Assembly (NCBI GenBank): GCA_000004695.1
Contig: CM000151.3
Span: forward strand, 8,032,001 to 8,096,000
Reading direction: 5' to 3'
Origin: Dictyostelium discoideum
Lineage: Eukaryota
DNA length: 64,000 bases
In this document: piece by piece, positions 45,667-62,791 of the stretch
Layout: the number at the start of each line of letters is the position of its first letter
Numbering within the stretch: position 1 is the first letter of the stretch
Program-made: the position numbers and the translations under genes
The notes under the pieces: model-generated
Seen by the model: the letters and a program-made list of their open reading frames with translations, nothing else
What the model was told of the DNA's origin: nothing
Database searches by the model: none

Positions 45667-47208
45667 TTAATTTTGAATTATTTCTTCATCATTATCTTTA
45701 AATGGTTCATAATTATTATTTTCATTATCTTCATTATTAAATTCATTATAATCTGAAGAATTTATACCTTGATTTTCAATTAATGGTTTTAATAAATTTG
45801 AATATTGAGGATTTTCAATAGTTTCTTCACAATCATCAGATTGTTTAAAACTTCTACCAGTGATTTTTGCTAAGATGTTTCTAAAGATTGTACCCCAATT
45901 TTCACGAAGTAATTGATATAAAATGATAGAGACAAAAGTGGAAACACCAATTGCATCAATTTTAATTTTACCCCATTCAACATTTACACTAATCATACCA
46001 GTACCTAAAACAATTGAAATACCGGCAGTTAAAAGATTTCTTGGTTTTGAAAAATCAACTTGAGAATTAATCCAAAGTTTTGCACCAGTTATAGCAGTGA
46101 TACCAAATAAAACAATTGATAAACCACCGAAAATACCTGGAGGTATAGTTTGAACGATTGCGCCGAAAATTGGTAAACATCCCAACACAATTGCGATACA
46201 TGCAGCAAATACGAATGAAAGGGTTGAGAAAATCTTTGTTATACTCATTACACCAATGTTTTCAGCGTAGGTTGTTGTACCAGAACTACCAAAGAATCCG
46301 GCTAAAATACATGCCAATGCATCACCTATAAAAGTTCTACCCAATAAATTATCCATACTATATTCAGTCATTGATGAAACCGCTTTTAAGTGACCAATAT
46401 TCTCTGCAGCTAAAATTACGGCAACAGGTGCAATCATTGAAATGTAAGTTGAATCGAATGATGGTAAATGAGTTTGTGGTAAACCAATCCATTTTGCATC
46501 ACTTACTACACTAAAATCAATACCTGGTCCAACACCTCCCAATCCACATAATAAATAAACTACATATGATACAACCCCACCAATTAAAATGGGTAATCTT
46601 TTCAAAGGGCCAGGTGCATAACATGTAATCATCACTACCAAAAGTATGGTTAATGCAGCCATCCATGCATCAAATCCTGTGGTTGCAGCTTGACCAACTG
46701 CTGAATTTGCTAAATGGAGACCAATGGAAACGATAACGGATCCAGTTACAACGGGTGGTGTTAAAAATTCAATCCATGCATGACCTGCAACCATTACAAG
46801 CAATCCAATGGCTAAATAAATAAATCCACAAACTACAATACCACCTGCTGCTGGAGAAATGTTTGGATTCGTTGTACCAGGTGAATAAATATATCCAGTG
46901 GCTGAATTAACAACTCCAATGAATGCAAAAGATGATCCTAAATATGACGGTACCTTACCTCCAGTGCATACATAGAATATCAATGTACCAACACCAGAGA
47001 AAAATAATGCTGAATTTGTACTAAATCCCATCAATAATGGGCATAAAATATTACCTCCAAACATTGCTAAAATATGTTGAAATGATAAAAAAAATGATGG
47101 TATAATTGGTATTCTTTCATCTGGCATAATAGGTATATCACTAGTATTTTTTAATTTATATTTTGGAAAATAATCCAAAATCATTATTTTTATATTTTCC
47201 CACATCAT
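45667..47208 (-). CDS. Nucleobase:cation symporter-2 (NCS2) family permease of the uracil/xanthine permease type, 513 aa, no intron
   Basis: FQHILAMFGGNILCPLLMG signature (compare UraA QHLFAMFGATVLVP). There are multiple Gly-rich TM segments. The ORF is continuous. Confidence 0.7.
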   Translation of the reverse strand: MMWENIKIMILDYFPKYKLKNTSDIPIMPDERIPIIPSFFLSFQHILAMFGGNILCPLLMGFSTNSALFFSGVGTLIFYVCTGGKVPSYLGSSFAFIGVVNSATGYIYSPGTTNPNISPAAGGIVVCGFIYLAIGLLVMVAGHAWIEFLTPPVVTGSVIVSIGLHLANSAVGQAATTGFDAWMAALTILLVVMITCYAPGPLKRLPILIGGVVSYVVYLLCGLGGVGPGIDFSVVSDAKWIGLPQTHLPSFDSTYISMIAPVAVILAAENIGHLKAVSSMTEYSMDNLLGRTFIGDALACILAGFFGSSGTTTYAENIGVMSITKIFSTLSFVFAACIAIVLGCLPIFGAIVQTIPPGIFGGLSIVLFGITAITGAKLWINSQVDFSKPRNLLTAGISIVLGTGMISVNVEWGKIKIDAIGVSTFVSIILYQLLRENWGTIFRNILAKITGRSFKQSDDCEETIENPQYSNLLKPLIENQGINSSDYNEFNNEDNENNNYEPFKDNDEEIIQN

Positions 47209-47827: not shown

Positions 47828-50800
47828 TTAATTTGCGCTTGAAGAAAATCTTTGAAGTTTTCTTTTTAATGGGGCTTCAACAAATCTTTTTTTGTAAATT
47901 ATGAAAACAATAGCAATAATTGCAGCTAGACCTCCAACTGGAACAGCGATCACAACTGGTAAAAACCATGACTCACGATTATTATCATCACATTCATCAA
48001 TGAATTCAGGACTAATCAATACAGAGAAGTCAGGATCTAATAAACATTTCTTTGTACAATGAGGTAAATTCATACCAACTGTAATTGAATCATTTGATTT
48101 TGATACTAACACAGTTTGCATAAATGTTGATATACCATCACTTTCGATTCTGTCTATAAATCTACCATTTAAAACTTTTGCATCTTTTTTAATAGCTATA
48201 TAATTTAATGAATTATCTTGATTTGGTGTACTATTAATTTCAATTTGATCATCATTACAATCATTTTCATTATTTGTTTGAATTTCATTTACACTTGATT
48301 TCATTTGTAATTGTAATGTATTTAAATTACTTGAATATTGATAATTTTCAATTGATACTGTCATTTTAACTGATCCACTTGTTAATTTAAAATTAATGCC
48401 TGCAAATGATACATCTCTATCTTTATTAATTTCTTCAATTGTATATGTGATATTACATTTATCATTTTGAATTGATTGAATGAATGTGTAAACTGTTTTA
48501 CTAATATTTGAAATTATTGACCATTTATTTAATAATAGATACTCATTGATTTGATTACCATTGAAATCTATCTCTATTAATTTTGTAATTAAAATTTGAT
48601 AATTTGTTTGTTGATTTGTAATATTTGTATTACCAGTATTACCATCTATTGTTGTATTAGATCCTGGTAATCCACCACTATTATCGCCACCACCACTTGG
48701 ATTTGAATATAAACTACAATCATAACCGCTCCATCTTCCAATACAATTACAATATCCAGTTGTTGTATTACAAATACCATTTGATGTCGATGTACAATGA
48801 TTTGGACATTGTTTATCATTTGAATAATATTGATAAATATCTTTTGATGTTACGTTGATTGAATTTTGAATTACACTTACTGATTTTAAACCTGTACCTG
48901 GTGGTGCTTTACAAATAATTTCACTTTCAGATATATTATAAATTGGTATACATTGTTTATTACCAATGAAAACTTGTGGATCAGTATGATTATTACCAAA
49001 CCAACCATAAATTGAAGCGCTACCACCATTGGTATCACTTGGTGAAACTGCTGATATTGTATGTAATGGAATTGAACAATCAATACCAATCCATTCGTAA
49101 GGAGTGATTGGGCATGAACAAATACCAGTCTGATTATTACATTGACCAATATTATTACAATTATTTAAACATTGTTTAAATGGGATTGAGCAATCATCAC
49201 CTTGATGGTTTGAATCACATTTACATTGACCAATATCAGATAAACAGTAACCATTACCATTACAATCATTATAATTTTCAGAACAATTTAAAATTACATT
49301 TATTCCACTTGGATTTAAAGTGAATTGCGTCGTTAAACCTCCAATTGTAATATATGATAAAATATCCTCCAAAGATGGGTCTACCACACTAGAAATTGTA
49401 CAGTATATTTGATAAAATGATGTACTTGAAACTATACAATTATAATTACCAATAGTAATGTTTACAATTGATTGATTAAAAGTAAAGAATGAACCATCGA
49501 AAATTAAACTACTTGAACCCAATACCCAATCTACCATTTCTAATCTTGGTGGTATATCTTGAGTTGACAATGGGAATATATAATTTGGATTGTTACTATA
49601 TATCAAGTAAACAATTGGTGGTGGTTTTATGGTTGTGATTGCACTTATTATTTTATTTGGTTTTATTACTTTGATATCAAATCTGTCTCCATTTTCAGTA
49701 ACTAGAAAGTTTGAGTTAACCCATGAACCACCTATATTTTCACCAAAAATATAATATTCATATTCGACATAATACATTGAATAATTATATATATTTACGA
49801 GTCTAAGATTTGGAATAATAATACCTTTTAAAAAATTTGTTATTATTTTTTGATAATTTATTGTTAAAAATTGTATTTTTAATTATGAAAAAAAAAAAAA
49901 AAAAAAAAAAAAAAGAATTTTTAAACTTACTTGGTGAAGATGGTTGATTCAAATTTGAAAAAGAATTACCAATGAATCTAGATTCTAAATCTATATTAAC
50001 TAATCCAAAGAAACATGTAAAACATGATGGAATTAATCCAGTCATTGAGTTATTACTTACAATTAAATCTAATTCACAATATGAATCATCAATTGTTCCA
50101 GTTATTTGATTAAAACTAATATCGATGCTTGTTAATTTATTATTAATTGTTCTATTGAAAATTGGTAAAGAACCTGACATTACATTATCGACTAAATTTA
50201 ATTTTTTAACATTTGTAAATAATGAAAAATCAAATGTTTCAATATATGCATTTTTGAGGGTGAACTCTTCAAATTTTTCATTTGTTGGTAAAATAAAAGG
50301 AAGTGAACCACCAAATGTAAAACCTCTACCAGTATCTTTAAAAATTAATTCTTTCATTGATTTACCAACTAATGATAAATCAATTAAAGATGGTGGGCTT
50401 AAAAGTAGTGTTCTTTCAAATTCACTTTTTTTTTTTTTTTAGTGTTAGCTATTTTCAATTATCCAATTAATAAATCAATATAAACACAAATAAAACTTAC
50501 ATTCTTGTTAAATTTTCAGCTCTAATTTGTGAAAATTCAATTGATGGGAAATTTATCTCATCATATACCTGAATTGATAAAGTATTTAAACTTTCACACT
50601 GAGTAATATTAATCCATGAAGATTGGTCAAAACCTGGAAGAAGAACAAGTTGGAAATATGCATTTATATATTTAAATGAAGGTACATTTAAGGATACAAC
50701 TTTAATATAAGATGGATTCCATATGAAGGTTCCATCTAGATCATTTTCAAAATAAATTAAATGAGATCCTATTCCAATAATACTTGAAGTTTGTATTGAT

Positions 50801-50838
<38 letters not shown>

Positions 50839-51392
50839 AGGAATTAGTTAAAAATTATAAATAATATTAAATTTTTAAAATATACATACACTTGATCTGC
50901 TTTAGAAAATATTGAAAATTTAATTTGAGTAGGAAAGGTTTGAGTTTTCATTGTTACTGAAAAATATAAAACAGTAGGTGGAAGTGGTAAAAACTGTATA
51001 TTCTCTTGAATAAGATCAAATCTTGTGGTTTTTTGAGGAAGTGAAGAATATAAAATATCACTATCTAAAACAACTGTACTTAGTGAAAGAGATGTCATGT
51101 TTTCATAACATAAAAAATCATCACCCAAAACATATGACATATTTGATTGTCCAAGGTTTAAAGTGGAAATGTAATTTTTATCACAACCAATATATAACAT
51201 TGGTTGAAAAAAAAAATCAGCTTTACAAAAATCATATTTTGATGTTGTGACATTTGGTGTGAGTTTTGAAATTGTACCCAAATTGGTTAATAAAGTTTTT
51301 ATACAATCATATTCTTTTTGGCTTAACTGTTGTTGTGAATTTACACAAATTATTAAAAAAAAAAACAACAATAGTGAATTTAAAGAAAACAT
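47828..51392 (-). CDS. Type I membrane protein with signal peptide, plant-type LRRs, EGF-like Cys-rich repeats and a C-terminal TM segment. Paralog A. Structure is complement(join(47828..49824,49931..50412,50501..50800,50890..51392)), about 1093 aa.
   Basis: Exon 1 encodes the signal peptide MFSLNSLLLFFFLIICVNSQQQ and ends in phase 2 at GTATGT. Exon 2 ends AGAAT then GTAAGT. Exon 3 encodes LRRs (LNLVDNVMSGSLP...ISFNQITGTIDDS) and ends in phase 1 at GTAAGT. Exon 4 encodes CNGNGYCLSDIGQCKCDSNHQGDDCS EGF-like modules and the TM segment VIAVPVGGLAAIIAIVFIIYKKRF. The exon 3 acceptor is ambiguous: 50412 or 50397. Confidence 0.55.
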
Positions 51393-51725
51393 ATTGTTTT
51401 GTGTGATGAGGTTGTGATGGTTCTTTATATTTATTTTTATTTTTTTTTTTTTTTTTTTTTTTGTGCAAAAACCACCATTTCAAAAAAATCTAAAAAAAAT
51501 CTGGAAAAAAAAGAAAATTCAAAAAATTTACTTTTTCCCAAAGATATTTTTTTTTTTTGAAAAAAAAATAATCAAAACCATCGTAAAAATTATTTTATTT
51601 TATTTTTTTTAAAATTTTTTTTTTTTCAAATCAAACAACCATCCTAAAACTTATTTTTTTTTTTATAATTAACAATATGACCGAATGTGCGAATTTTCAT
51701 TTTTTAGATTTTTTTTTTTTTTTTT

Positions 51726-51757
<32 letters not shown>

Positions 51758-52074
51758 GAAATATATTTCAAATAAGAATAAAGATATTTTGTTTAAATAA
51801 AAGTGATAAAAATAGAATACAAAAAGGAATAAAAAAAAAAAAAAAAAATTATAGTCCATTTTTTTAATACACATTTTTTTTTTTTTTTTTATATTTATTT
51901 TTAGATCTATTAAATTTATTTATTTTTAGATCTATTAAATTTATTTAATTTCATTTATTTTATTTTTTTATTTATTATTTTTAAATAGAGACTCTGAAAG
52001 GTTTGATGATCTTAATTTATAATAATAGAATTTTATTTTCATTATTTTGTTGACCAAAATAAGAAATATATCCG

Positions 52075-52079
<5 letters not shown>

Positions 52080-52143
<64 letters not shown>

Positions 52144-52153
52144 TTTATTATTT

Positions 52154-52184
<31 letters not shown>

Positions 52185-52190
52185 GTTTAG
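52080..52190. repeat. (ATT)n microsatellite, about 110 nt
   Basis: Uninterrupted attattatt... run. Confidence 0.9.
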
Positions 52191-52385
52191 TAATCACCAA
52201 TAATATTATTATAAAACTTAAAAAAATAAAGTTGGTTTTAATTCATAATATTCGTTGTTTTTTTTTTTTTTTTTTTTTTTTTACATTAATGAGTAGATCT
52301 ACGAATATTTTGTTTTGCGCTTGGGATGCAGTAATGAATCTTAGCTATTTGAATTTTAATTTCTTTTTTTTTAAAGTTATTACAT

Positions 52386-52398
52386 TTCTAAATGGGAT
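52386..52398 (-). promoter_or_regulatory. External B-box (GGGATCGAATCCC) about 38 nt downstream of tRNA-His. This is a Dictyostelium pol III element.
   Basis: A second B-box-like sequence lies at the spacing typical for Dictyostelium tRNA genes. A second GGGGGATCGAATCCC copy lies at 53347-53361. Confidence 0.5.
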
Positions 52399-52435
52399 TC
52401 GATCCCTTGACCCAAAGTTTTATTTTTAAAAAAAG

Positions 52436-52506
52436 TGCCGCGACCTGGAATCGAACCAGGGTCAACAGAGCCACAATCTGATGTACTACCACTATACTAT
52501 CACGGC
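52436..52506 (-). tRNA. tRNA-His (GTG)
   Basis: The minus-strand sequence is GCCGTGATAGTATAGTGGTAGTACATCAGATTGTGGCTCTGTTGACCCTGGTTCGATTCCAGGTCGCGGCA. Acceptor stem GCCGTGA/TCGCGGC. D-loop AGTGGTAG. Anticodon loop TTGTGGC with CAGA/TCTG stem. B-box GGTTCGATTCC. Confidence 0.85.
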
Positions 52507-52509
52507 GAA

Positions 52510-52555
52510 TTTTGATATTTTTTCAAAAAACTGCTCACACCGATTTTATATTTTT

Positions 52556-52617
<62 letters not shown>

Positions 52618-53250
52618 CCGAAAACATTCTTTCAGGGAATTTCCAGAATTTTAAATTTTTAAAGTCGAATAAAGATTTTAAAGAAAAAAAAAGAAATGAA
52701 TAAATTGGCAAATACAATAATGACAGAATCAACAGAAACATTGGCAGATAAAATCAAGAAATCAAATGAACTCAGAACAAAGTTCAAATATTTAAAAAAT
52801 ACGTACAGAACACTTGATAAAATAAGCGAAGCAATATACCACACTCAAATTGAACTAAAACAATCACAGCAAAGAAAAATGCACCTTTAAAGCAAATTTA
52901 AAGAAAAGTTGATTTAAATTGGATTTAAATTGAATTTAAAGCCGCGTTTAAAAAATTCATTTTTAAGGTAATTTTTAAGGTAATTTTTAAGATATTTAAA
53001 AATGCCTTTAAAATTTGCTTTAAAATAAATTTTTAAGCAATTTTAAAGGTGATTTTAAAGGTGATTTTAAAGGTGATTTTTAAGGTAATTTTTAAGATAA
53101 TTTTTAAGATATTTAAAAATACCTTTAAAATTTATTTTAAATTAATTTTAAATAGGATTTAAAGTAGATTTAAAGTATATTTAAAGTGAATTTAAATTTC
53201 CTTTAAACATAAATTTAAGGTTTTTAATAAAAAAGATCTAATTTTAGAAC
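52510..53250 (+). mobile_element. Retroelement-derived segment upstream of tRNA-His. It consists of a short stub ending in about 50 A (52560-52612), then TRE-like module sequence with a 64-aa ORF and TTTAAAGG/TTTTAAGGTAAT-type degenerate tandem repeats.
   Basis: The poly(A) begins about 48-55 nt upstream of the tRNA 5' end, which is the TRE5-type integration distance. The 52900-53240 repeat words recur in 53440-53600, directly upstream of ORF1. Confidence 0.4.
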
Positions 53251-53296
53251 AAAAAAATGGGGATAAAATATTCTATCATTTTTAAATTTTTCATCA

Positions 53297-53368
53297 AAGC
53301 AATCAAATGGTTTAATGGTTGATGAGACTACCCTTTGATAGAGGGTCGGGGGATCGAATCCCTTTTGG
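53297..53368 (+). other. tRNA-like remnant. It has a canonical anticodon arm (ACCCT-TTGATAG-AGGGT, anticodon GAT) and a T-loop-like GGGGGATCGAATCCC, but the acceptor and T stems do not fold. A second B-box-like GAGTTCGAAGCC lies on the minus strand at 53406-53418.
   Basis: Manual folding only. Not a convincing functional tRNA. Confidence 0.3.
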
Positions 53369-53621
53369 TAATTTTTGAAAAATTAAAAAAAAAATTTTTA
53401 AAAAATTTATCCGTTAAATAACGGCTTCGAACTCAGGACCTCGCTTTTAAAGCCATTAAAAAGGTAATTTTAAAGGTAATTTTAACGGCGTTCTAAAGAC
53501 CCCCTAAAAATTACCTTTAAAATTACCTTTAAAATTTTTTTAATTCAGGACTTTAAAGCAAATTTAAATTTAATTTAAAGCGAATTTAAAGGTGGTTTTT
53601 TCTTCGCTGTGATATAAATTC

Positions 53622-54803
53622 ATGATCAATATCCCAGATGAGATATCCAACAACTTGAAAGCAGAATTGGAAATCCATTTACAAGGAGATGATAAGATAA
53701 TAACAAGTAAGAATAAATTCAAAATCCTCACGGACTGCAGAACTCAAGTAATCAAGTACTCTAACGTTTTCAACGGAGTACTAAAAGGAGTTCACAGAGC
53801 AATAATAAAACCAAAAAAGATCTTCAAAACATTCAACTGGGAAAAATCAATGGACATAGTAGAAAAAACATTGCATGAAGAAGGACTGGAAATAATCAAA
53901 TTAGATAATTTAGGTGAAAACCTGATAATACACTCATTCAACTCAATTATCAGTCCAGAGCACAAAGACCAGCTAATACATTGTAAACACATAACAATAC
54001 TATTCCTCACTACAACAGAAGAAACAAAAAATCAAAGAAAAACAAATAGGGAAATCGAAGACGAAATCTCAGAAAACTCAAAAATCACGGAACTACCAAA
54101 TTCCGAGACAAAGGAAAACACAAGAATAAACATAAAATCAAAAGAAGAATTCAATCATAAAAACACTAGCGAATCAAAAAATAACAACAAAAACAAAATA
54201 GAAAACAAAAAAGAAAATAATAAAGAAATCAATAATGAAAACATCAAAGACAAGAGCAAAAACGAAAAAGTAAAGGAAAAAGAAATTGAAAATAAAAAAC
54301 CCACAACAATTAGAGCAACAACAACAACCACAACGACAGAAACGACAAATACAATAAACAATATTGAAAAGAGAAAAGTACTTCGTATCCCACCAATAAC
54401 AGTAACATATAGTGTTGACAGCAAAGAGAAAAGGAGAATGGAGTTAACTGAAGATGAAGAAGCATTAGAAGTGGTAAGAAAGATGTTCGAAAATGAAGAA
54501 GAGAACAGAATTTTTGAAGAAAAAATAAATAACCAAAAAAAGAAGGAAACCCCAAGGTTAGCCTCAATCAAAAAAAGACAAACAATGTCACCTATCCAAA
54601 ATTCAGAATCTCCAGCAACGCCAGAGATAGTAAAAAGAAAAAGATTCAACTCATCTCCAAACCCAACAACTAATCACCAAGAAATTTTAACACCTTACAA
54701 AACTCCAATTAAAATAACAAAGGAAGAATCAGATTTAATGGAAGCAGCACTAAGAGACAAATTGCCCAAAGTACTCCAAGACGTACTTCCATCTGTCTCA
54801 TTT

Positions 54804-54809
<6 letters not shown>
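53622..54809 (+). CDS. Retrotransposon ORF1 protein, 395 aa, basic and Lys/Asn-rich
   Basis: Continuous ORF directly upstream of the ORF2 endonuclease. Ends 44 nt before the ORF2 ATG. Confidence 0.6.
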
Positions 54810-54853
<44 letters not shown>

Positions 54854-54856
<3 letters not shown>

Positions 54857-57802
54857 ATAAAAATAATGACCTGGAATTGCCAAGGTTGCTCAACAATCAA
54901 AAGCATGAATCAGACAAAAAATACAATTAACCTAATAAAACCTGATATATCAATACTAACAGAAACAAATCTAAAAAAGGATCAAAATCTAGCGCAAATC
55001 AAAAACCATTACTCAACAGGAGGAAAAGGAAAAGAAGCAAGAGGAAAAGGAGTAATGGCAATAAATCACCTAGAACAAATAGAAATTAAAAACTTGGAAG
55101 AAAAAGAAGGCAGAATCTTAAAATTTACTGCAATTCTAAACAATACGGAAATCAACATAATTGGCATCTATGCACCAGCCTCATATGACAGAAGAAAAGG
55201 ATGGTTTTCAAACAATATTTCCCTTGGAGATCTAGAACAGGCAGACATAGTTACTGGTGACTTTAACATCAACAAATATGCAAAAATCAAGTTCAAAGAT
55301 GGATCATCCGATAAGAGAAAATTCACAGAAAATGAAACAATAGAATTCCTAATGATGGAAGTAGGACTCACCGAAATACTACCAAATTCAACAACTAAAA
55401 CAACCTTCAAAGATAAACTAATCGATAGAACATTCTTATCAACAAAGATGCACCAACTCAATCACTCGTACAAGATAATAGATAAAATAAACAAATCAGA
55501 CCATAACATAGTAGTGATGGATTTCAAAATACCAAATTTCACAAAAATATACAAATCACCCCTATGGAAAATGAACTCAATAATAATTAAAGAAGATAAA
55601 ACAATAAAAAAGATAGAAAAAATAATCGACCACTACCAGGAAACCAAAAGAAAAAACCTTAACATAACGGAATACTGGATTAAGTTCAAAAAAAAAATAA
55701 AAAAACAATGCATTACAACAGAAAAGAAAAGAATACTAGAGAGAAAAAAAACGCTATCAAATCTAGCAAATGAACACACAAAAACAAAAAACAAATATGA
55801 AAAAGAAACAATATCGAACGAAATAACAATACTTCAAGAAGAAGAAAGAATAGACAGAATGATCAAAAGCTCAATCAACTACATCAACAATAAAGAAATA
55901 GCATCAAATCTCCTTACATCTATTCTTAAAAAAAGAGACTCGAGCTCCCAGATTCACAGAATAAAGAACCCATCCAATGGAGAAATCGAAACAGAACAAA
56001 AAGAAATAACAGATTGCTTCAGAAAATATTACGAGACACTCTTCAAAGAGAAAGAATGCGACCAAGAAACACATACAGAACTTCTAAGCACCTGGAACCC
56101 ACCAATAGATAAAAAAAAATTAACAGAGATGGAAGACAGAATCGAAGAATATGAGGTTAAGCTAGCAATAGAAAAGATAGCAGAAGGTAAATCACCAGGA
56201 GAAGATGGAATAACATCTTCATTCTATAAAATCCACCAACACAAACTAATTCCAATCCTCACAGAACTATTCAACTTCTTTTTAAACAATGAAATTCCAA
56301 CAGAATTCAAGAACGGTATCCTTACATCAATATACAAAGGTAAAGGGGATGTCTTGGAAATCTCAAACAGAAGACCAATAACGTTACTCAACGTAGACTA
56401 CAAAATCTACTCAAAAATAATCAACAATAGAATACTAAAAATCCTGCCAAACATAATCTCAAAGTACCAGAACGGTTTTATACCAGGAAGGCTACTCCAC
56501 AACAACATTATAGCTTTGGATTTAGCAATGGAAAAGAGTGATAGAAACACGATAATCACCTTTTATGACTTCGAAAAAGCCTTCGATTCAATATCTCATA
56601 AAGCGTTAATAAGGACTCTAAACCATCTAAAGTTCCCTCGGAAAATAACAAACACAATACTAAGCATGTTAACGAACACCAACATAAGGGTCATGGTAAA
56701 TGGACAACTCTCTGAATCCTTCAGAGCAGGAAGAGGTACAAAACAGGGCGACCCAATTTCACCAACTCTCTTCGCTATAGTATGTGAATGCTTATCAACA
56801 TCAATAAGAAAAGACAATACCATAATAGGCATAAAACTCAATCAGAACAATTCGATGAAGATTGGACAATATGCAGACGACACAGTCACACTAGCCAGTA
56901 ACATAGATGACGCAGATAAAATGGATATGAAAGTTATAAAATTTTGCCAAGCCACAGCAGCAAAAATAAACGATAATAAATGTGTGTGCATCACTAAAAA
57001 CCCAAAGATAAAGACCAAATATAAGACAATTGGGGCGAAAGAAGAAGAAAGATATCTTGGCTTTTTCTTCAACCGCAAAGGTGTAATAAGCAAAGTAGAT
57101 GATACGGTGAACAAACTGGAAAACCTCACAAAATGCTATTCGAGCGTGTCATCAACGCTAAAAGGTAGAATCACAATCCTCAAATCATACCTGCTGTCCC
57201 AACTAACATTCCAACTATACATCAACGAAATAAATGACATAAAGAAACTGGAGAACGTTAATGCCAACATGTTATTCAAAGGGGACAGGTGGGCTATCTC
57301 AAAAGAAAGGAGCAGAAGAGACTATGAAATTGGAGGCCTGGAACTCTGGAATATGGCAACCAGATCCAATGCCCAGAAAGCATGGATATACGAACAATAC
57401 CTCAGAGAAAAAGACGACCAGAACTGCCCTCCACATATGGAAGTCTGGAAGTCGGAAAAAGAAAACTCACTATCAAGGATTCACATCAAATGCTGGAAAG
57501 CCTGGAAGTTGTTGCACCACCCAAGAGAGCGAATAACTCTCAAACTAAACCAAGTCAAACCCAAATATGAAAACAAACAAAAATTAAAAGTAATCTATAG
57601 AAACATGATGGATATCAAATACAAGGGATGGAACAAACACCAGCCAACAACAGGTCAAAAACTGATTCAAAAGAACATTAATCACCCAATTCTACCATTT
57701 AGAGAAGCCAGATCAATCACAACTATCAAAGGAAGAGACTTAGCATGGAGGTATCTACTCAAGGCACTTCCAAAACACCATGGGGAGAATTGCCACTTGT
57801 AA
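54854..57802 (+). CDS. Retrotransposon ORF2: apurinic-endonuclease-like domain plus reverse transcriptase
   Basis: MIKIMTWNCQGC...ILTETNL is EEP-nuclease-like. RT motifs KGKGDV..RPITLLN, FYDFEKAFDSISH and QYADD are present. Confidence 0.8.
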
Positions 57803-58281
57803 AGAAGAAGAGTCGTCTATGCACATCTTCTTCGAATGCAAATCAATAAAACAGGATATCGACTCAATCTATCAAAAGGTCTGTAAAGACTCTAACAACA
57901 CTTACCACGGTCCATGGAGCGAAAAAGTTCTCGGAAAACTACTCACACCATTCTCATCAAATCTGATAGGAGCCATTATGGAATCGATATGGTACAGAAG
58001 AAATCAAATAAAATTCAACGATAACACTACAATAATAACAGAGAACCAAATAATTCATAAAATCAAAAAAGCGAGAGATGCCGAATGGGATAGAACAAGA
58101 AAGATAGTAGAAAAGCAACTACGTCAAGAACTAAAATGCACTGATAACCGAGAGTCAATCAATCGGACCGCATCAATAAAAAGAAGACTCGAAAAATTCA
58201 GCCACAACTGGAACTCGAAACTCATGACCATAAACATCCCGGAACACTTCATACCATACTGCTCATATAACACCAACTACT

Positions 58282-58286
<5 letters not shown>
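57780..58286 (+). CDS. ORF2 C-terminal Cys/His (zinc-knuckle-like) domain in a shifted frame relative to the RT. This is either a frameshifted or a programmed-shift tail.
   Basis: C-x8-H-x4-C...C spacing (CKEEESSMHIFFECKSIKQDIDSIYQKVC). It overlaps the ORF2 stop by 23 nt in a different frame. Confidence 0.5.
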
Positions 58287-58318
<32 letters not shown>

Positions 58319-58382
58319 ATAACAATAATAATAATAACAATAATATAATAATAATATAATAATAATAAAAAAAAAAATAAGA

Positions 58383-58416
<34 letters not shown>

Positions 58417-58497
58417 ACAAATAAACTCTCCTAGAACACACTCAAATTGAGTGATGTTATTAAAAAAAAAAAAAAAATTTTATATTTTACCTTTATG

Positions 58498-58676
58498 GAT
58501 AGTAGAAAAGCAACTACGACAAGAACTAAAATGCACTGATAACCGAGAGTCAATCAATCGGACCGCATCAATAAAAAGAAGACTCGAAAAATTCAGTCAC
58601 AACTGGAACTAGAAACTCATGACCATAAACATCCCGGAACACTTCAGACCATACTGCTCATATAACACCAACTACT

Positions 58677-58717
<41 letters not shown>

Positions 58718-58900
58718 ATAACAATAATAATAATAATAATATAATAATAATAATAATATAATAATAATAATAATAAAAAAATAAGAATAAAATAAAAAAA
58801 AAAAAATATATAAAAAAAAAAAAAACTACAAATAAACTCTCCTAGAACACACTCAAATTGAGTGATGTTATTAAAAAAAACAATGACAGCAAAAAAAAAA
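58498..58900 (+). mobile_element. Severely 5'-truncated second TRE copy (last 190 nt of ORF2, A-rich 3'UTR, terminal block ACTACAAATAAACTCTCCTAGAACACACTCAAATTGAGTGATGTTATT, then A-run), inserted in tandem
   Basis: About 97 percent identical to 58095-58475. Point differences include gtcaag/gacaag, cagcca/cagtca and cttcat/cttcag. Confidence 0.65.
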
Positions 58901-58924
58901 AAAGTTTGTTTACAATTATTTTTA

Positions 58925-61032
58925 TTATTTTCTGTTTAATAATTTAATCTGTCTTTTGAAACGGGCCTCAACAAATCTTTTTTTATAAATTACGTATAAT
59001 AGTGCTATAATCAAAGCACATGCAACCACTGGTACGGTAATGGCAACTGGTAAAACCCAAAATTTTTGATCATTTCCACGGCACCCGTCAACGAATTCAG
59101 GACTAACCAATACAGAGAAGTCAGGATCTAATAAACATTTCTTTGTACAATGAGGTAAATTCATACCAACTGTAATTGAATCATTTGATTTTGATATTAA
59201 TACAGTTTTCATAAATGTTGATATTCCATCACTTTCGATTCTGTCTATAAATCTACCATTTAAAACTTTTGCATCTTTTTTAATTGTTATATAATTTAAT
59301 GAATTATCTTGATTTGGTGTATTATTGATTTCAATTTGATCATCGTTACAATCATTTTCATTATTTGTTTGAATTTCATTTACACTTGATTTCATTTGTA
59401 ATTGTAAAGTATTTAAATTACTTGAATATTGATAGTTTTCAATTGATACTGTCATTTTAACTGATCCACTTGTTAATTTAAAATTAATACCTGCAAATGA
59501 TACATCTCTATCTTTATTAACTTCTTCAATTGTATATGTGATATTACATTTATCATTTTGAATTGATTGAATGAATGTGTAAACTGTTTTACTAATATTT
59601 GAAATTATTGACCATTTATTTAATAATAGATACTCATTGATTTGATTACCATTGAAATCTATCTCTATTAATTTTGTAATTAAAATTTGATAATTTGTTT
59701 GTTGATTTGTAATATTTGTATTACCAGTATTACCATCTATTGTTGTATTAGATCCTGGTAATCCACCATTATTACCACCACTACTGCCACCACCACTTGG
59801 ATTTGAATATAAACTACAATCATAACCGCTCCATCTTCCAATACAATTACAATATCCAGTTGTTGTATTACAAATACCATTTGATGCCGATGTACAATGA
59901 TTTGGACATTGTTTATCATTTGAATAATATTGATAAATATCTTTTGATGTTACATTGATTGAATTTTGAATTACGCTAACTGATTTTAAACCTGTACCTG
60001 GTGGTGCTTTACAATTAATTTCACTTTCAGATATATTATAAATTGGTATACATTGTATATTACCAATGAAAACTTGTGGATTAGTATGATTATTACCAAA
60101 CCAACCATAAATTGAAGCATTACCACCATTGATGTCACTTGGTGAAACTGCTGATATTGTATGTAATGGAATTGAGCAATCATTACCAGTCCATCCAAAA
60201 GGAGTGATTTGACATGAGCAAATACCAGTTTGATTATTACATTGACCAACACTATTACAATCATTTAAACATTCTTTTAATGGTAATCCACATGCATCAC
60301 CTTGATGATTTGAATCACATTGACATTTACCAGTTAGAGTTGTACAAATACCATTACCATTACAGTCAAGTGGATTACAATCGATATATGGCAAAGAACA
60401 ATCATCACCTTGATGTGTTGAATCACATTGACATTTACCAATATCAGATAAACAATAACCATTACCATTACAATCATTATAAGCAGAACAGTTTAAAATT
60501 TTATTTATTAAACCTGGATTTAAAGTGAATTGAGTTGTTAAATTACCAATTGTAATATATGATAAAATGTTTTTAAAGGAATCTATACTATTGAAGACTG
60601 TACATGATATTTGATTAAATGATGTACTTGTTACAAAGCAATTATCGCTACCAATTGTAATATTTACAATTGATTTATTATATGTAAAGAATGAACCATC
60701 GAAAACCAAATTCAAAGCACTTGATTGCCAATCAACCTTTTCTAAAAGAGGATTAATATTTCTGGTTGATAATTTAAAAAAATAGTTTGGATCCACTGGG
60801 CTATATTTCATGGAAATAACATCTGGAAGTTTTGAATAAGACACAACCCTTATTAATTTATTAACAATTAAAAATTGACTAGCATAATAACTACCAAAAT
60901 CATCAACAACCAAGTTTGTTGGAATCCAAATACCACCTAAATTTTCACCAAATATAAAGAATTCATACTCTAAATAAGTTGTAAAATTCTTTACATTACC
61001 TGGCATAAAGTTTGGAATAATTATTGCTAAAA

Positions 61033-61086
<54 letters not shown>

Positions 61087-61666
61087 TTGTTAAAATTTAT
61101 GCACAAACTATTATTAATAATATTAAAAAACAAATACTTACATGTAGATGATGGATAGTTATTTGTAAAATTGTTACCAGAGAATTTATAACTAAAACTT
61201 GGTAATCCTAAGAAACATGTAAAACATGATGGTATAGTACCATTCATTAAATTATTTCTTACATATAAATCAACAGAACAGAATGAATCATCAATGGTAC
61301 CTGTTATTTTATTATCCATAATATTAATATATTTCAATTTTCCAAATAATGTTATATTGAAAACTAATGGAAATGAACCAGAGATAACATTATTTTCTAA
61401 TGTTAAAATTTCAACATTATTAAATAATGAGAAATCAAGTGTTTCAATATATCCACCTGAAAATGAAAATGATTTGAAATTCTTGTTTTTTGGTAAAATA
61501 AATGGGAATAAACCGCCGCCATATTGAAAATTTCTACCACATTTTGTAAAACTCATTGATTCAATTGAATTACCAATTGATGAAAAATCAATTATACTTG
61601 GCACACTAGAAATATAAGAATCAATCCAACTATTTCATAAATATATATTTTTAAAATGTTAGACTT

Positions 61667-61758
<92 letters not shown>

Positions 61759-62099
61759 TTATTAGAAAAATAATAAAACCTTACATCAACTTTAAATTAT
61801 CAGATCTAATTTGAGAAAATTCAAATGATGGAAATTGAATAAAATCATTTGAATGAATTGTTAAAGAGGTTATATTTTCGATTGTCGATATATTACTCCA
61901 TGAGGATTGTAAAAAATTGGGAAGTAATACCATATCAAATCGACCCTTAATAAATCTAAGCAATGGTATATTCCTTGTTATAATACTATTATCTGATTCC
62001 CATATTTTAGAACCATCCAAATCATTTTCAAAAAAAATTGAATGTGATATAAATGATAAACTAATCCATGGTGGAATATTTAATGAACTATTATATTGT

Positions 62100-62193
<94 letters not shown>

Positions 62194-62791
62194 TGTTGTT
62201 GTAGTAGTAGTAGTAGAAGTAGTTAGTAATTGTGAAATAAAACGAAATTTATTATATAATAATAATAATAATAATTATACATTACAATTGTATTAAGTTT
62301 TTTAAATATGAAAATTTAATTGTTGTTTCAATTGTTTGGCTAACAATGGATGCGTGAAAGTAATTTAATGATGGTTGTAATTGAGAGAATAGTAAATTAC
62401 TACCATACAAATTTAAAAATTCTAAATTTTGCGGTAATGCCGAATAAAGAGTGCTATTGTAAATTGTTGAATTTAGTGAAAGATCATTTAAATTTTCAAA
62501 ACATAAAAAATCATCACTAATCACATATGAATTTGATTGTCCAAGATTTAAACTATTAATTTGATTTTCATAACAACCTACAGATACAATTGGTTGACTA
62601 GTATTTTGAGTATTACAAAAATCATATTCAAGTGTTGAACTATTTTTAAAATTAACTTTTGAAATTGTACCTAAATTTATTAATAAATTTTCCATACATT
62701 CATTTTCTTTTGGACTTAATATTTGTTGTTGTGAATTTACAAAAACTATTAAAATAAATAATAAAAATAAAATTAGATAAAAGTTGAACAT
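58925..62791 (-). CDS. LRR/EGF-like type I membrane protein, paralog B. Structure is complement(join(58925..61026,61142..61629,61785..62087,62286..62791)), about 1132 aa.
   Basis: Exon phases (2, 2, 1) and boundaries match paralog A. Signal peptide MFNFYLILFLLFILIVFVNSQQQ. The EGF-like array is one module longer. TM segment VAITVPVVACALIIALLYVIYKKRF. Introns 1 and 3 contain (TAC)n and (ATT)n microsatellites. Confidence 0.55.
62098..62220. repeat. (TAC/GTA)n microsatellite, about 120 nt, with a short (GTT)n, inside intron 1 of paralog B
   Basis: agtagtagtag... run. It translates as the spurious poly-V ORF 62096..62296. Confidence 0.9.

Follow-up and report, generated by a model that had tools for sequence, protein, structure and literature searches.

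We analysed a 64,000-nucleotide stretch of Dictyostelium discoideum AX4 chromosome 2 (GenBank assembly GCA_000004695.1, contig CM000151.3, positions 8,032,001 to 8,096,000), which we call the window and in whose numbering coordinates are given unless a contig label precedes them. It carries two ComC-family genes, DDB_G0277431 (gene A) and DDB_G0277525 (gene B), with a tRNA-His gene and a TRE5-type retrotransposon between them. We consider it very probable that A and B are an ancient tandem pair, that a tRNA-targeted TRE arrived between them late, that gene conversion acts on part of both genes, and that unequal recombination within the converted part produced a deletion in one lineage. The two genes look young because a 1.36-kb gene-conversion tract is near-identical between them.

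Two predicted ComC-family genes in tandem

The gene models that we use are as follows.

47828-51392, minus strand: gene A (DDB_G0277431), predicted ComC-family type-I membrane protein, 1097 aa
51392-50890, 50800-50501, 50424-49931 and 49824-47828, minus strand: exons of gene A
58925-62791, minus strand: gene B (DDB_G0277525), predicted ComC-family paralog, 1132 aa in the present model
62791-62286, 62087-61785, 61629-61142 and 61026-58925, minus strand: exons of gene B

An earlier note on this DNA, made from the letters alone, had described two same-orientation four-exon paralogs with identical intron phases, encoding a signal peptide, leucine-rich repeats (LRR), an epidermal growth factor (EGF)-like array and a transmembrane (TM) segment. 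The exon models confirm the gene structure, with both genes on the minus strand and intron phases 2/2/1 in A and in B. All six introns have GT..AG ends and a GC content of 6 to 25%. The spliced A model is 100% identical over 1097 aa to annotated DDB_G0277431 in an exact protein look-up, and look-ups of A, B, and the TRE's two open reading frames (ORF1, ORF2) all return annotated D. discoideum AX4 chromosome 2 products.

The protein features claimed for the pair also hold. Pfam matches both proteins to LRR_ComC (PF24141; 62.5 bits in A and 54.2 bits in B, cutoff 27) and EGF_2 (38 and 61.3 bits, cutoff 22.1), and the translations, read by eye, show a hydrophobic N terminus and one C-terminal TM segment followed by a KKR stop-transfer motif. 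The strongest match is to ComC_SSD (PF22933, ComC supersandwich), at 334 bits in A and 333.8 bits in B (cutoff 24) over positions 1-222 of 222; a TIG domain is matched in both proteins, and Beta-sand_ComC_2nd (PF24143) scores 30.6 bits in A and 24.9 bits in B against a cutoff of 27. The order is signal peptide, ComC-type LRR, beta-sandwich (above the cutoff in A, just below it in B), EGF modules, TIG, ComC supersandwich, and one TM segment, which is the domain order of the D. discoideum ComC family, and by this Pfam-defined architecture A and B are predicted members of it. They are paralogs separate from comC itself, annotated "hypothetical protein" and "EGF-like domain-containing protein," and their likeness to it is drawn from sequence alone. 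The comC gene encodes an EGF-domain protein with a signal peptide and a TM segment and occurs only in group-4 dictyostelids (PMC4931340); its mutant aggregates aberrantly (PMC2873529). A sequence search of the PDB gave an LRR-like antifreeze protein as the sole match.

Old divergence outside, near-identity inside a bounded tract

At the nucleotide level, A and B are 60 to 73% identical over the first 2.7 kb and 87 to 91% identical in the EGF modules; identity reaches 95 to 100% over about 1 kb and then falls sharply to 65 to 73% in the TM segment and tail. A likelihood scan delimits a homogenised tract of 95.4% identity, against 66.1% in the rest of exon 4 (log-likelihood ratio, 142), which contains perfect runs of 247 bp (the longest) and 101 bp. 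Chance would not come near to giving such similarity.

48005-49363, minus strand: homogenised tract in exon 4 of A (1.36 kb), comprising EGF, TIG, EGF, and ComC supersandwich
59096-60568, minus strand: matching homogenised tract in exon 4 of B

Synonymous divergence (dS, Nei-Gojobori) between A and B is 0.65 in exons 1 to 3, 0.87 in the 5' part of exon 4, 0.27 in the EGF modules, 0.071 in the tract, and 1.15 in the tail. Synonymous differences occupy 14 of 206 sites in the tract compared with 183 of 392 elsewhere (Fisher p = 3e-26). Since the paralog dS of 0.65 to 1.15 exceeds the 0.47 to 0.50 of D. discoideum-D. dimigraforme orthologs (0.47 for A in its N-terminal part), the duplication is probably older than the split of these two species. 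A has orthologs in both D. dimigraforme and D. citrinum, B has one in D. dimigraforme, and A is closer to its counterparts in the two species than to B.

The tract groups differently. A differs from its ortholog in the D. cf. discoideum assembly ACTFIY by a dS of about 0.14 in every segment, with 0.148 in the tract; because the A-B tract dS of 0.071 is lower, the tract would have coalesced after the AX4-ACTFIY split. In pairwise identity matrices of 19 family members, N-terminal identities cluster by ortholog set, of which there are at least four besides the A-type and the B-type, and tract identities by genome, not by ortholog. Within the tract, the paralogs of D. dimigraforme share 95% identity with one another and 85 to 88% with AX4, and those of a second D. 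cf. discoideum assembly, ACTFIZ, share 98%; A and B of ACTFIY are 100% identical across the EGF region. These patterns indicate that the family evolves in concert through interlocus gene conversion and that this is limited to the membrane-proximal ectodomain. Tract identity gives no sign that the TRE reduces A-B conversion, the tract being about 97% identical both in AX4, with a 7.5-kb spacer, and in ACTFIY, with a 2.3-kb spacer.

A fairly recent tandem duplication, later parted by tRNA-targeted insertions and followed by rapid divergence of the 5' halves, would explain why A and B agree in orientation, exon count, and intron phases and share a 95 to 100% identical stretch in exon 4. We regard it as very unlikely, given that dS outside the tract is above that of the species split, that other species carry separate orthologs of A and of B, and that the sharp 3' boundary of the tract and the grouping by genome fit conversion rather than uneven divergence. 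Strong purifying selection on the supersandwich alone, without gene conversion, has equally little to recommend it. No part of the family is better conserved than the supersandwich (ComC_SSD E value, about 1e-100), and dN/dS in the tract is low (0.08 to 0.36), but synonymous sites are near-identical too, the perfect runs extend to 247 and 101 bp, and paralogs from one genome resemble each other more closely than orthologs from different genomes do.

In their N-terminal parts, outside the tract, the two genes differ in dN/dS. Over the N-terminal 600 codons of B, dN/dS is 0.88 to 0.94 against ACTFIY and against an assembly labelled D. discoideum, ACTFIR, and 0.55 against ACTFIZ, compared with 0.39 to 0.45 for the same region of A. 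This hints at relaxed or diversifying selection on the LRR head of B.

The locus in six related assemblies

We compared the locus in six related assemblies; in them, the ComC genes lie between TerD on one side and a xanthine/uracil permease gene on the other. The permease gene keeps its position in all six and provides a synteny anchor.

45667-47208, minus strand: xanthine/uracil permease gene, single exon, directly downstream of A
D. cf. discoideum ACTFIY (L004): B ortholog, tRNA-His, small Arf-like gene, A ortholog; no TRE; spacer of 2.3 kb
D. cf. discoideum ACTFIZ (L009, GCA_054859235.1): B, a different TRE5-like element in the same orientation, tRNA-His, A
D. dimigraforme (L006): B-like gene, tRNA-His, A-like gene, one further paralog
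D. citrinum (L005): A-like gene, tRNA-His, 446-bp fragment of the second gene's tract
D. discoideum ACTFIT (GCA_054883475.1; 99.2% identity with AX4): the TRE of AX4 with a 9,849-bp insertion nested in it; B and A 17.4 kb apart
"D. discoideum" ACTFIR (L007, GCA_054859385.1): one gene, no tRNA-His, no TRE

On this comparison, TerD-B-tRNA-His-A-permease is the predicted ancestral order. With the tRNA-His already between B and A in the common ancestor, the two genes would never have been directly adjacent in any genome examined. The ACTFIY spacer also holds an intact gene for a 188-aa Arf-family GTPase between the tRNA-His and the A ortholog (L004 8578-9144); we looked for it in the AX4 window and it is absent, with no counterpart in the spacer part at 51393-52434.

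In ACTFIR, a single gene (P0005; L007 10001-14230) replaces both A and B, and the tRNA-His is missing. Its head is 85% identical to B at the amino acid level (dS of 0.076 to B versus 0.665 to A), and its tail is 96% identical to A (dS of 0.054 to A versus 1.22 to B); A's 3' flank and then the permease gene follow it. The switch from B to A lies inside the tract, where the two genes are indistinguishable. Judged by these segments, the gene is a B-5'/A-3' chimera, the expected product of unequal recombination within the tract. The assembly, labelled D. discoideum, is about as diverged from AX4 (dS of about 0.05 to 0.13) as the "cf. discoideum" assemblies.

The earlier note had proposed asking whether loci in other strains have one gene and no TRE; ACTFIR has this makeup, yet its gene is chimeric, and ACTFIY has two genes without a TRE. 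That the single gene of ACTFIR is ancestral and the two-gene state derived is highly improbable. Only one gene lies between TerD and the permease in ACTFIR and in D. citrinum. The ACTFIR gene, however, is a mosaic with a B-type head and an A-type tail, the D. citrinum gene is of A-type and a remnant of a tract remains next to the tRNA there, and D. dimigraforme, ACTFIY, and ACTFIZ all carry both types.

A chimera arising by deletion between converted paralogs has familiar counterparts. Classic cases of conversion and unequal crossover are the human alpha-globin genes, RHD/RHCE, CYP21A2/CYP21A1P, and the opsin arrays. The ComC pair resembles such tandem paralogs in its sharply bounded tract of near-identity, synonymous sites included, between old genes, in the greater closeness of paralogs within a genome than of orthologs between genomes, and in the fusion gene with loss of the interval in one lineage. 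It differs from the classic cases in that homogenisation affects only the membrane-proximal ectodomain, over at least six ortholog groups, and spares the LRR head, the putative ligand-binding part, as well as the cytoplasmic tail. A literature search found no description of either process, concerted evolution or conversion, for ComC-family genes.

A late TRE5-type element beside the tRNA-His gene

The earlier note's 7.5-kb gap with tRNA-His and retrotransposon sequence is borne out: the A-B spacer (51393-58924) measures 7,532 bp and contains the tRNA-His gene and a reverse transcriptase (RT) ORF. The TRE takes up 6,324 bp of it. Repeats in the island were analysed by dust-filtered BLAST and Tandem Repeats Finder (TRF).

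52435-52506, minus strand: tRNA-His(GTG), anticodon GUG (ARAGORN; Rfam tRNA, 65 bits)
52395-52405, minus strand: external B-box-like motif (GGATCGAATCC), at 30-40 nt downstream from the 3' end of tRNA-His
52557-58880, plus strand: degenerate TRE5-type non-LTR (long terminal repeat) retrotransposon (RVT_1, 128 bits; ORF1 DDB_G0277519, ORF2 DDB_G0277521)
52696-52863, plus strand: first 56 codons of TRE ORF1, 100% identical to aa 1-56 of an intact 454-aa ORF1 (P0028)
52865-53611, plus strand: 747-bp non-autonomous terminal inverted repeat (TIR) element, termini CACAGC...GCTGTG, 2-bp target-site duplication (TSD) "AT," inserted in TRE ORF1
53613-54809, plus strand: rest of TRE ORF1 (aa 57-454); in the annotation, DDB_G0277519, starting at ATG 53622
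54854-58286, plus strand: TRE ORF2 (RT and putative APE-like endonuclease), frameshift at about 57795; intact form 1144 aa
58103-58880, plus strand: tandem duplication of the TRE 3' end, 395-bp unit, 1.9 copies, 93% identical

The element begins at 52557 and the tRNA-His 5' end lies at 52506, leaving a gap of 50 bp; its ORFs are on the plus strand and the tRNA-His gene is on the minus strand, so that the 5' ends stand head-to-head. TRE5 elements integrate 47±3 bp upstream of tRNA genes (PMC5391098), in a fixed orientation with the element's 5' end toward the tRNA 5' end (PMC3159450). The element shares with TRE5-A (formerly DRE) and TRE5-B/C this position and facing arrangement, two ORFs with an RT domain and a putative APE-like domain in ORF2, an oligo(A) tail, a 3' hairpin-forming module, and multiple near-identical genomic copies. 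RVT_1 matches ORF2 at 128 bits (cutoff 29.6), and Exo_endo_phos reaches 19.1 bits against a cutoff of 24.5 while spanning profile positions 1-225 of 225.

Both ORFs are damaged. ORF1 is split by the 747-bp element, and in tblastn with the intact ORF2 (P0045), aa 1-981 align to 54854-57796 and aa 982-1144 align to 57795-58283, across the frameshift; by these lesions the AX4 copy is predicted to be dead. Compared with the full copy L002, which lies beside a tRNA-Asp gene and has an approximately 11-bp TSD, the 5' module of about 240 bp is missing. The 5' end is an A58 homopolymer (52557-52614; A37 in L002), an A47 run (54808-54854) separates ORF1 from ORF2, and the lengths of such A runs differ among copies. 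The duplicated 395-bp unit at the 3' end holds the end of ORF2, an A-rich spacer, and the terminal hairpin-forming module; the duplication is common to AX4 and ACTFIT, and L002 has a single copy of the unit. The tail of eight A residues ends at 58880, with 44 bp between it and the stop codon of B; the sequence shows an AATAAA that overlaps this codon and is still intact beside the element.

TRE5-A.1 has the structure AB-ORF1/ORF2-BC, and the repetition of the B-module in the 3' untranslated region (UTR) is said to define it. Neither the AX4 copy (BLAST and tblastn) nor L002 shows similarity of the ORF1-start region to the 3' UTR, and because this repeat is absent, we do not file the element as TRE5-A.1. 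The AX4 copy further differs from TRE5-A in having no A-module-like 5' end. Residue 10 of its ORF1 is Thr, while the "Ile-10" position was mutated in the TRE5-A.1 study (PMC3159450).

Other insertions are present at this locus in related strains. The TRE5-like element of ACTFIZ (L009 14443-19642) has 40% amino acid identity to the AX4 type in ORF2 and 37% in ORF1 by tblastn. Its 3' end carries a second copy of the ORF1 N terminus (tblastn, 14718-14443), a B-module-like repeat that the AX4 copy does not have. In ACTFIT, the 9,849-bp insertion, which codes for integrase/rve-type proteins, lies in TRE ORF2 at window positions 56608-56613, with about 6 bp duplicated at the junction (L001 15311-23009, L008 2641-4790).

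These comparisons place the arrival of TREs, on present synteny, as late, lineage-specific, and recurrent, and the duplication as independent of the TRE: ACTFIY has both genes and the tRNA without a TRE, and ACTFIZ has a different element. The earlier note had pictured a tandem duplication pried apart by tRNA-targeted insertions, with ancient paralogs whose spacing had nothing to do with the TRE as the opposite case. Each picture is half right. The paralogs are tandem, and the TRE came later and accounts for 6,324 of the 7,532 bp of spacing; the duplication, however, appears ancient, with the tRNA already between the genes. The note's other suggestion was duplication mediated by the insertions. 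Such a duplication, which could run for example through recombination between TRE copies or retrotransposon-associated transduction, draws on the TRE sitting exactly between the copies and on the general capacity of repeats to drive segmental duplication, but it is scarcely credible in the face of the TRE-free two-gene locus of ACTFIY, the different element at the same site in ACTFIZ, the 98.4% identity of the AX4 TRE to another genomic copy, which makes it far younger than the paralogs, and the lack of TRE sequence on the outer flanks of the pair within the window.

Proposed history of the locus

The history that we favour would begin with an ancient tandem ComC-family pair, B then A, with a long-resident tRNA-His between them. 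In the AX4 lineage, the Pol III transcription complex of the tRNA-His would have drawn a TRE5-type element to a site about 50 bp upstream, head-to-head, probably by TFIIIB-directed target-primed integration, which would have widened the spacer from roughly 1.2 kb to 7.5 kb. The copy would then have decayed through loss of the 5' module, splitting of ORF1 by the 747-bp TIR element, the ORF2 frameshift, and duplication of the 3' end, and a further nested insertion of 9.8 kb in ACTFIT would have brought the spacer to 17.4 kb. Independently of the TRE, repeated interlocus conversion would even out the EGF-TIG-EGF-supersandwich region among family members within a genome, leaving the LRR N terminus and the TM/cytoplasmic tail with their old ortholog-specific divergence. 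In ACTFIR, unequal recombination in the tract, presumably non-allelic homologous recombination, would have deleted the 3' part of B, the tRNA-His, and the 5' part of A, giving one chimeric gene.

Several points weigh against parts of this history. In D. citrinum (L005 9330-9401) and D. dimigraforme (L006 6770-6842), the tRNA-His gene stands the other way round with respect to the ComC genes than it does in AX4, ACTFIY, and ACTFIZ. Either an old local inversion or a substitution of one tRNA-His gene for another is suggested, and speaking of the same resident tRNA assumes one or the other. TRE5 target-site duplications are 10-16 bp long. We recognised none at the AX4 TRE, whose 5' junction lies in the A58 run and for which the ACTFIY empty site is too diverged to align. 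The assignment to TRE5-A, TRE5-B, or TRE5-C was not settled by Ile-10, by the C-module mutation positions (PMC3159450), or by the primers in PMC9012585 and PMC4559204. Finally, strong codon bias in the tract, or selection acting on its synonymous sites, is conceivable, but it would not explain the grouping by genome.

All of the mechanisms that we invoke are of known kinds, and the locus was already annotated; what appears to be new as examples is the family-wide contrast of a constant stalk with a variable head and tail, the fusion allele, and a single tRNA-His that has served several times, independently, as a landing pad. In a compact genome, the locus offers a worked example of a Pol III gene as a safe harbour hit repeatedly and independently by retrotransposons, of gene conversion that makes old paralogs look young, and of unequal recombination for which the converted tract becomes a deletion breakpoint. 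It also cautions against dating duplications by local identity. The ComC-like array is structurally polymorphic among close strains, which could matter if these surface proteins serve cell-cell recognition. One unlikely reading is that the ComC-like cluster is a modular family of recognition receptors, with a membrane-proximal stalk (TIG-EGF-supersandwich) that conversion holds uniform in each genome and an LRR head and cytoplasmic tail that can diversify, as the N-terminal dN/dS of 0.88 to 0.94 of B against close relatives would fit. If so, the design would be what one expects where partners or kin are recognised, and to it the tRNA-His/TRE landing pad would add structural polymorphism in the form of 2.3-, 7.5-, and 17.4-kb spacings and a fusion gene.

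The 747-bp element and the B-box-like motif

The ends of the 747-bp element are confirmed by six further copies with 2-bp TSDs and by two intact empty sites. It contains internal 12-bp tandem repeats and tRNA-like fragments, and its target duplication is non-specific. Other copies lie in the ORF2 of another TRE (L002 11592-12351) and, four in number, within the 9.8-kb ACTFIT insertion. The 2-bp TSD and CAC.. ends recall CACTA/Mirage-type elements. Reading 52865-53611 as a TRE 5' UTR or LTR was ruled out by the full-length ORF1 (P0028), the TIRs, and the 2-bp TSDs.

The motif GGATCGAATCC has only two matches in the window, with 0 expected by chance. The copy at 52395-52405 is in the position of an external B box, and the other (53351-53361, plus strand) is inside the 747-bp element. 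TRE5-A is reportedly able to target lone A/B-box motifs, and by analogy, the 747-bp element might attract TREs through its B-box-like motif.

Gene-model details

Two details of the gene models are corrected here, one being where DDB_G0277525 starts and the other the acceptor of intron 2. The AX4 annotation of B has 1100 aa and starts at the internal Met33 (MENLL...), leaving out the signal peptide. Starting at ATG 62791 adds 32 residues (62696-62791) that align with the signal peptide of A (..VNSQQQ..), and on this alignment, ATG 62791 is the predicted true start of B, giving a signal peptide homologous to that of A.

The intron-2 acceptor of A has three in-phase AGs, at 50426/25, 50414/13, and 50399/98. 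The earlier note was right that AGs at 50414 and 50399 are present and in phase and that the exon-3 acceptor is ambiguous, but the conserved and annotated acceptor is the one at 50426/25. AX4, D. cf. discoideum, D. citrinum, and D. dimigraforme all keep this AG; in none of the four species do the next 27 nt contain an indel or leave the frame, while the preceding intron is very variable in length, and the D. dimigraforme A-type gene has no alternative AG. By this conservation, 50426/50425 is the predicted acceptor of A. B has an ambiguity of the same kind, between 61631/30 and 61607/06; one strain has a TCT-to-AGT, Ser-to-Ser double change in this region, which argues for coding sequence.

Also as described in the earlier note, B has an additional EGF-like module and introns filled with microsatellites.

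60288-60395, minus strand: extra 36-aa EGF-like module of B, a 108-nt gap in AX4 A
61033-62228, minus-strand gene B: intron microsatellites found by TRF, (AAT)18 at 61033-61086, (TAA)36 at 61668-61776, and (TAG)43 at 62100-62228

The "extra" module is absent from AX4 A but is carried by the A ortholog of ACTFIY, where it forms part of the region in which A and B are identical.

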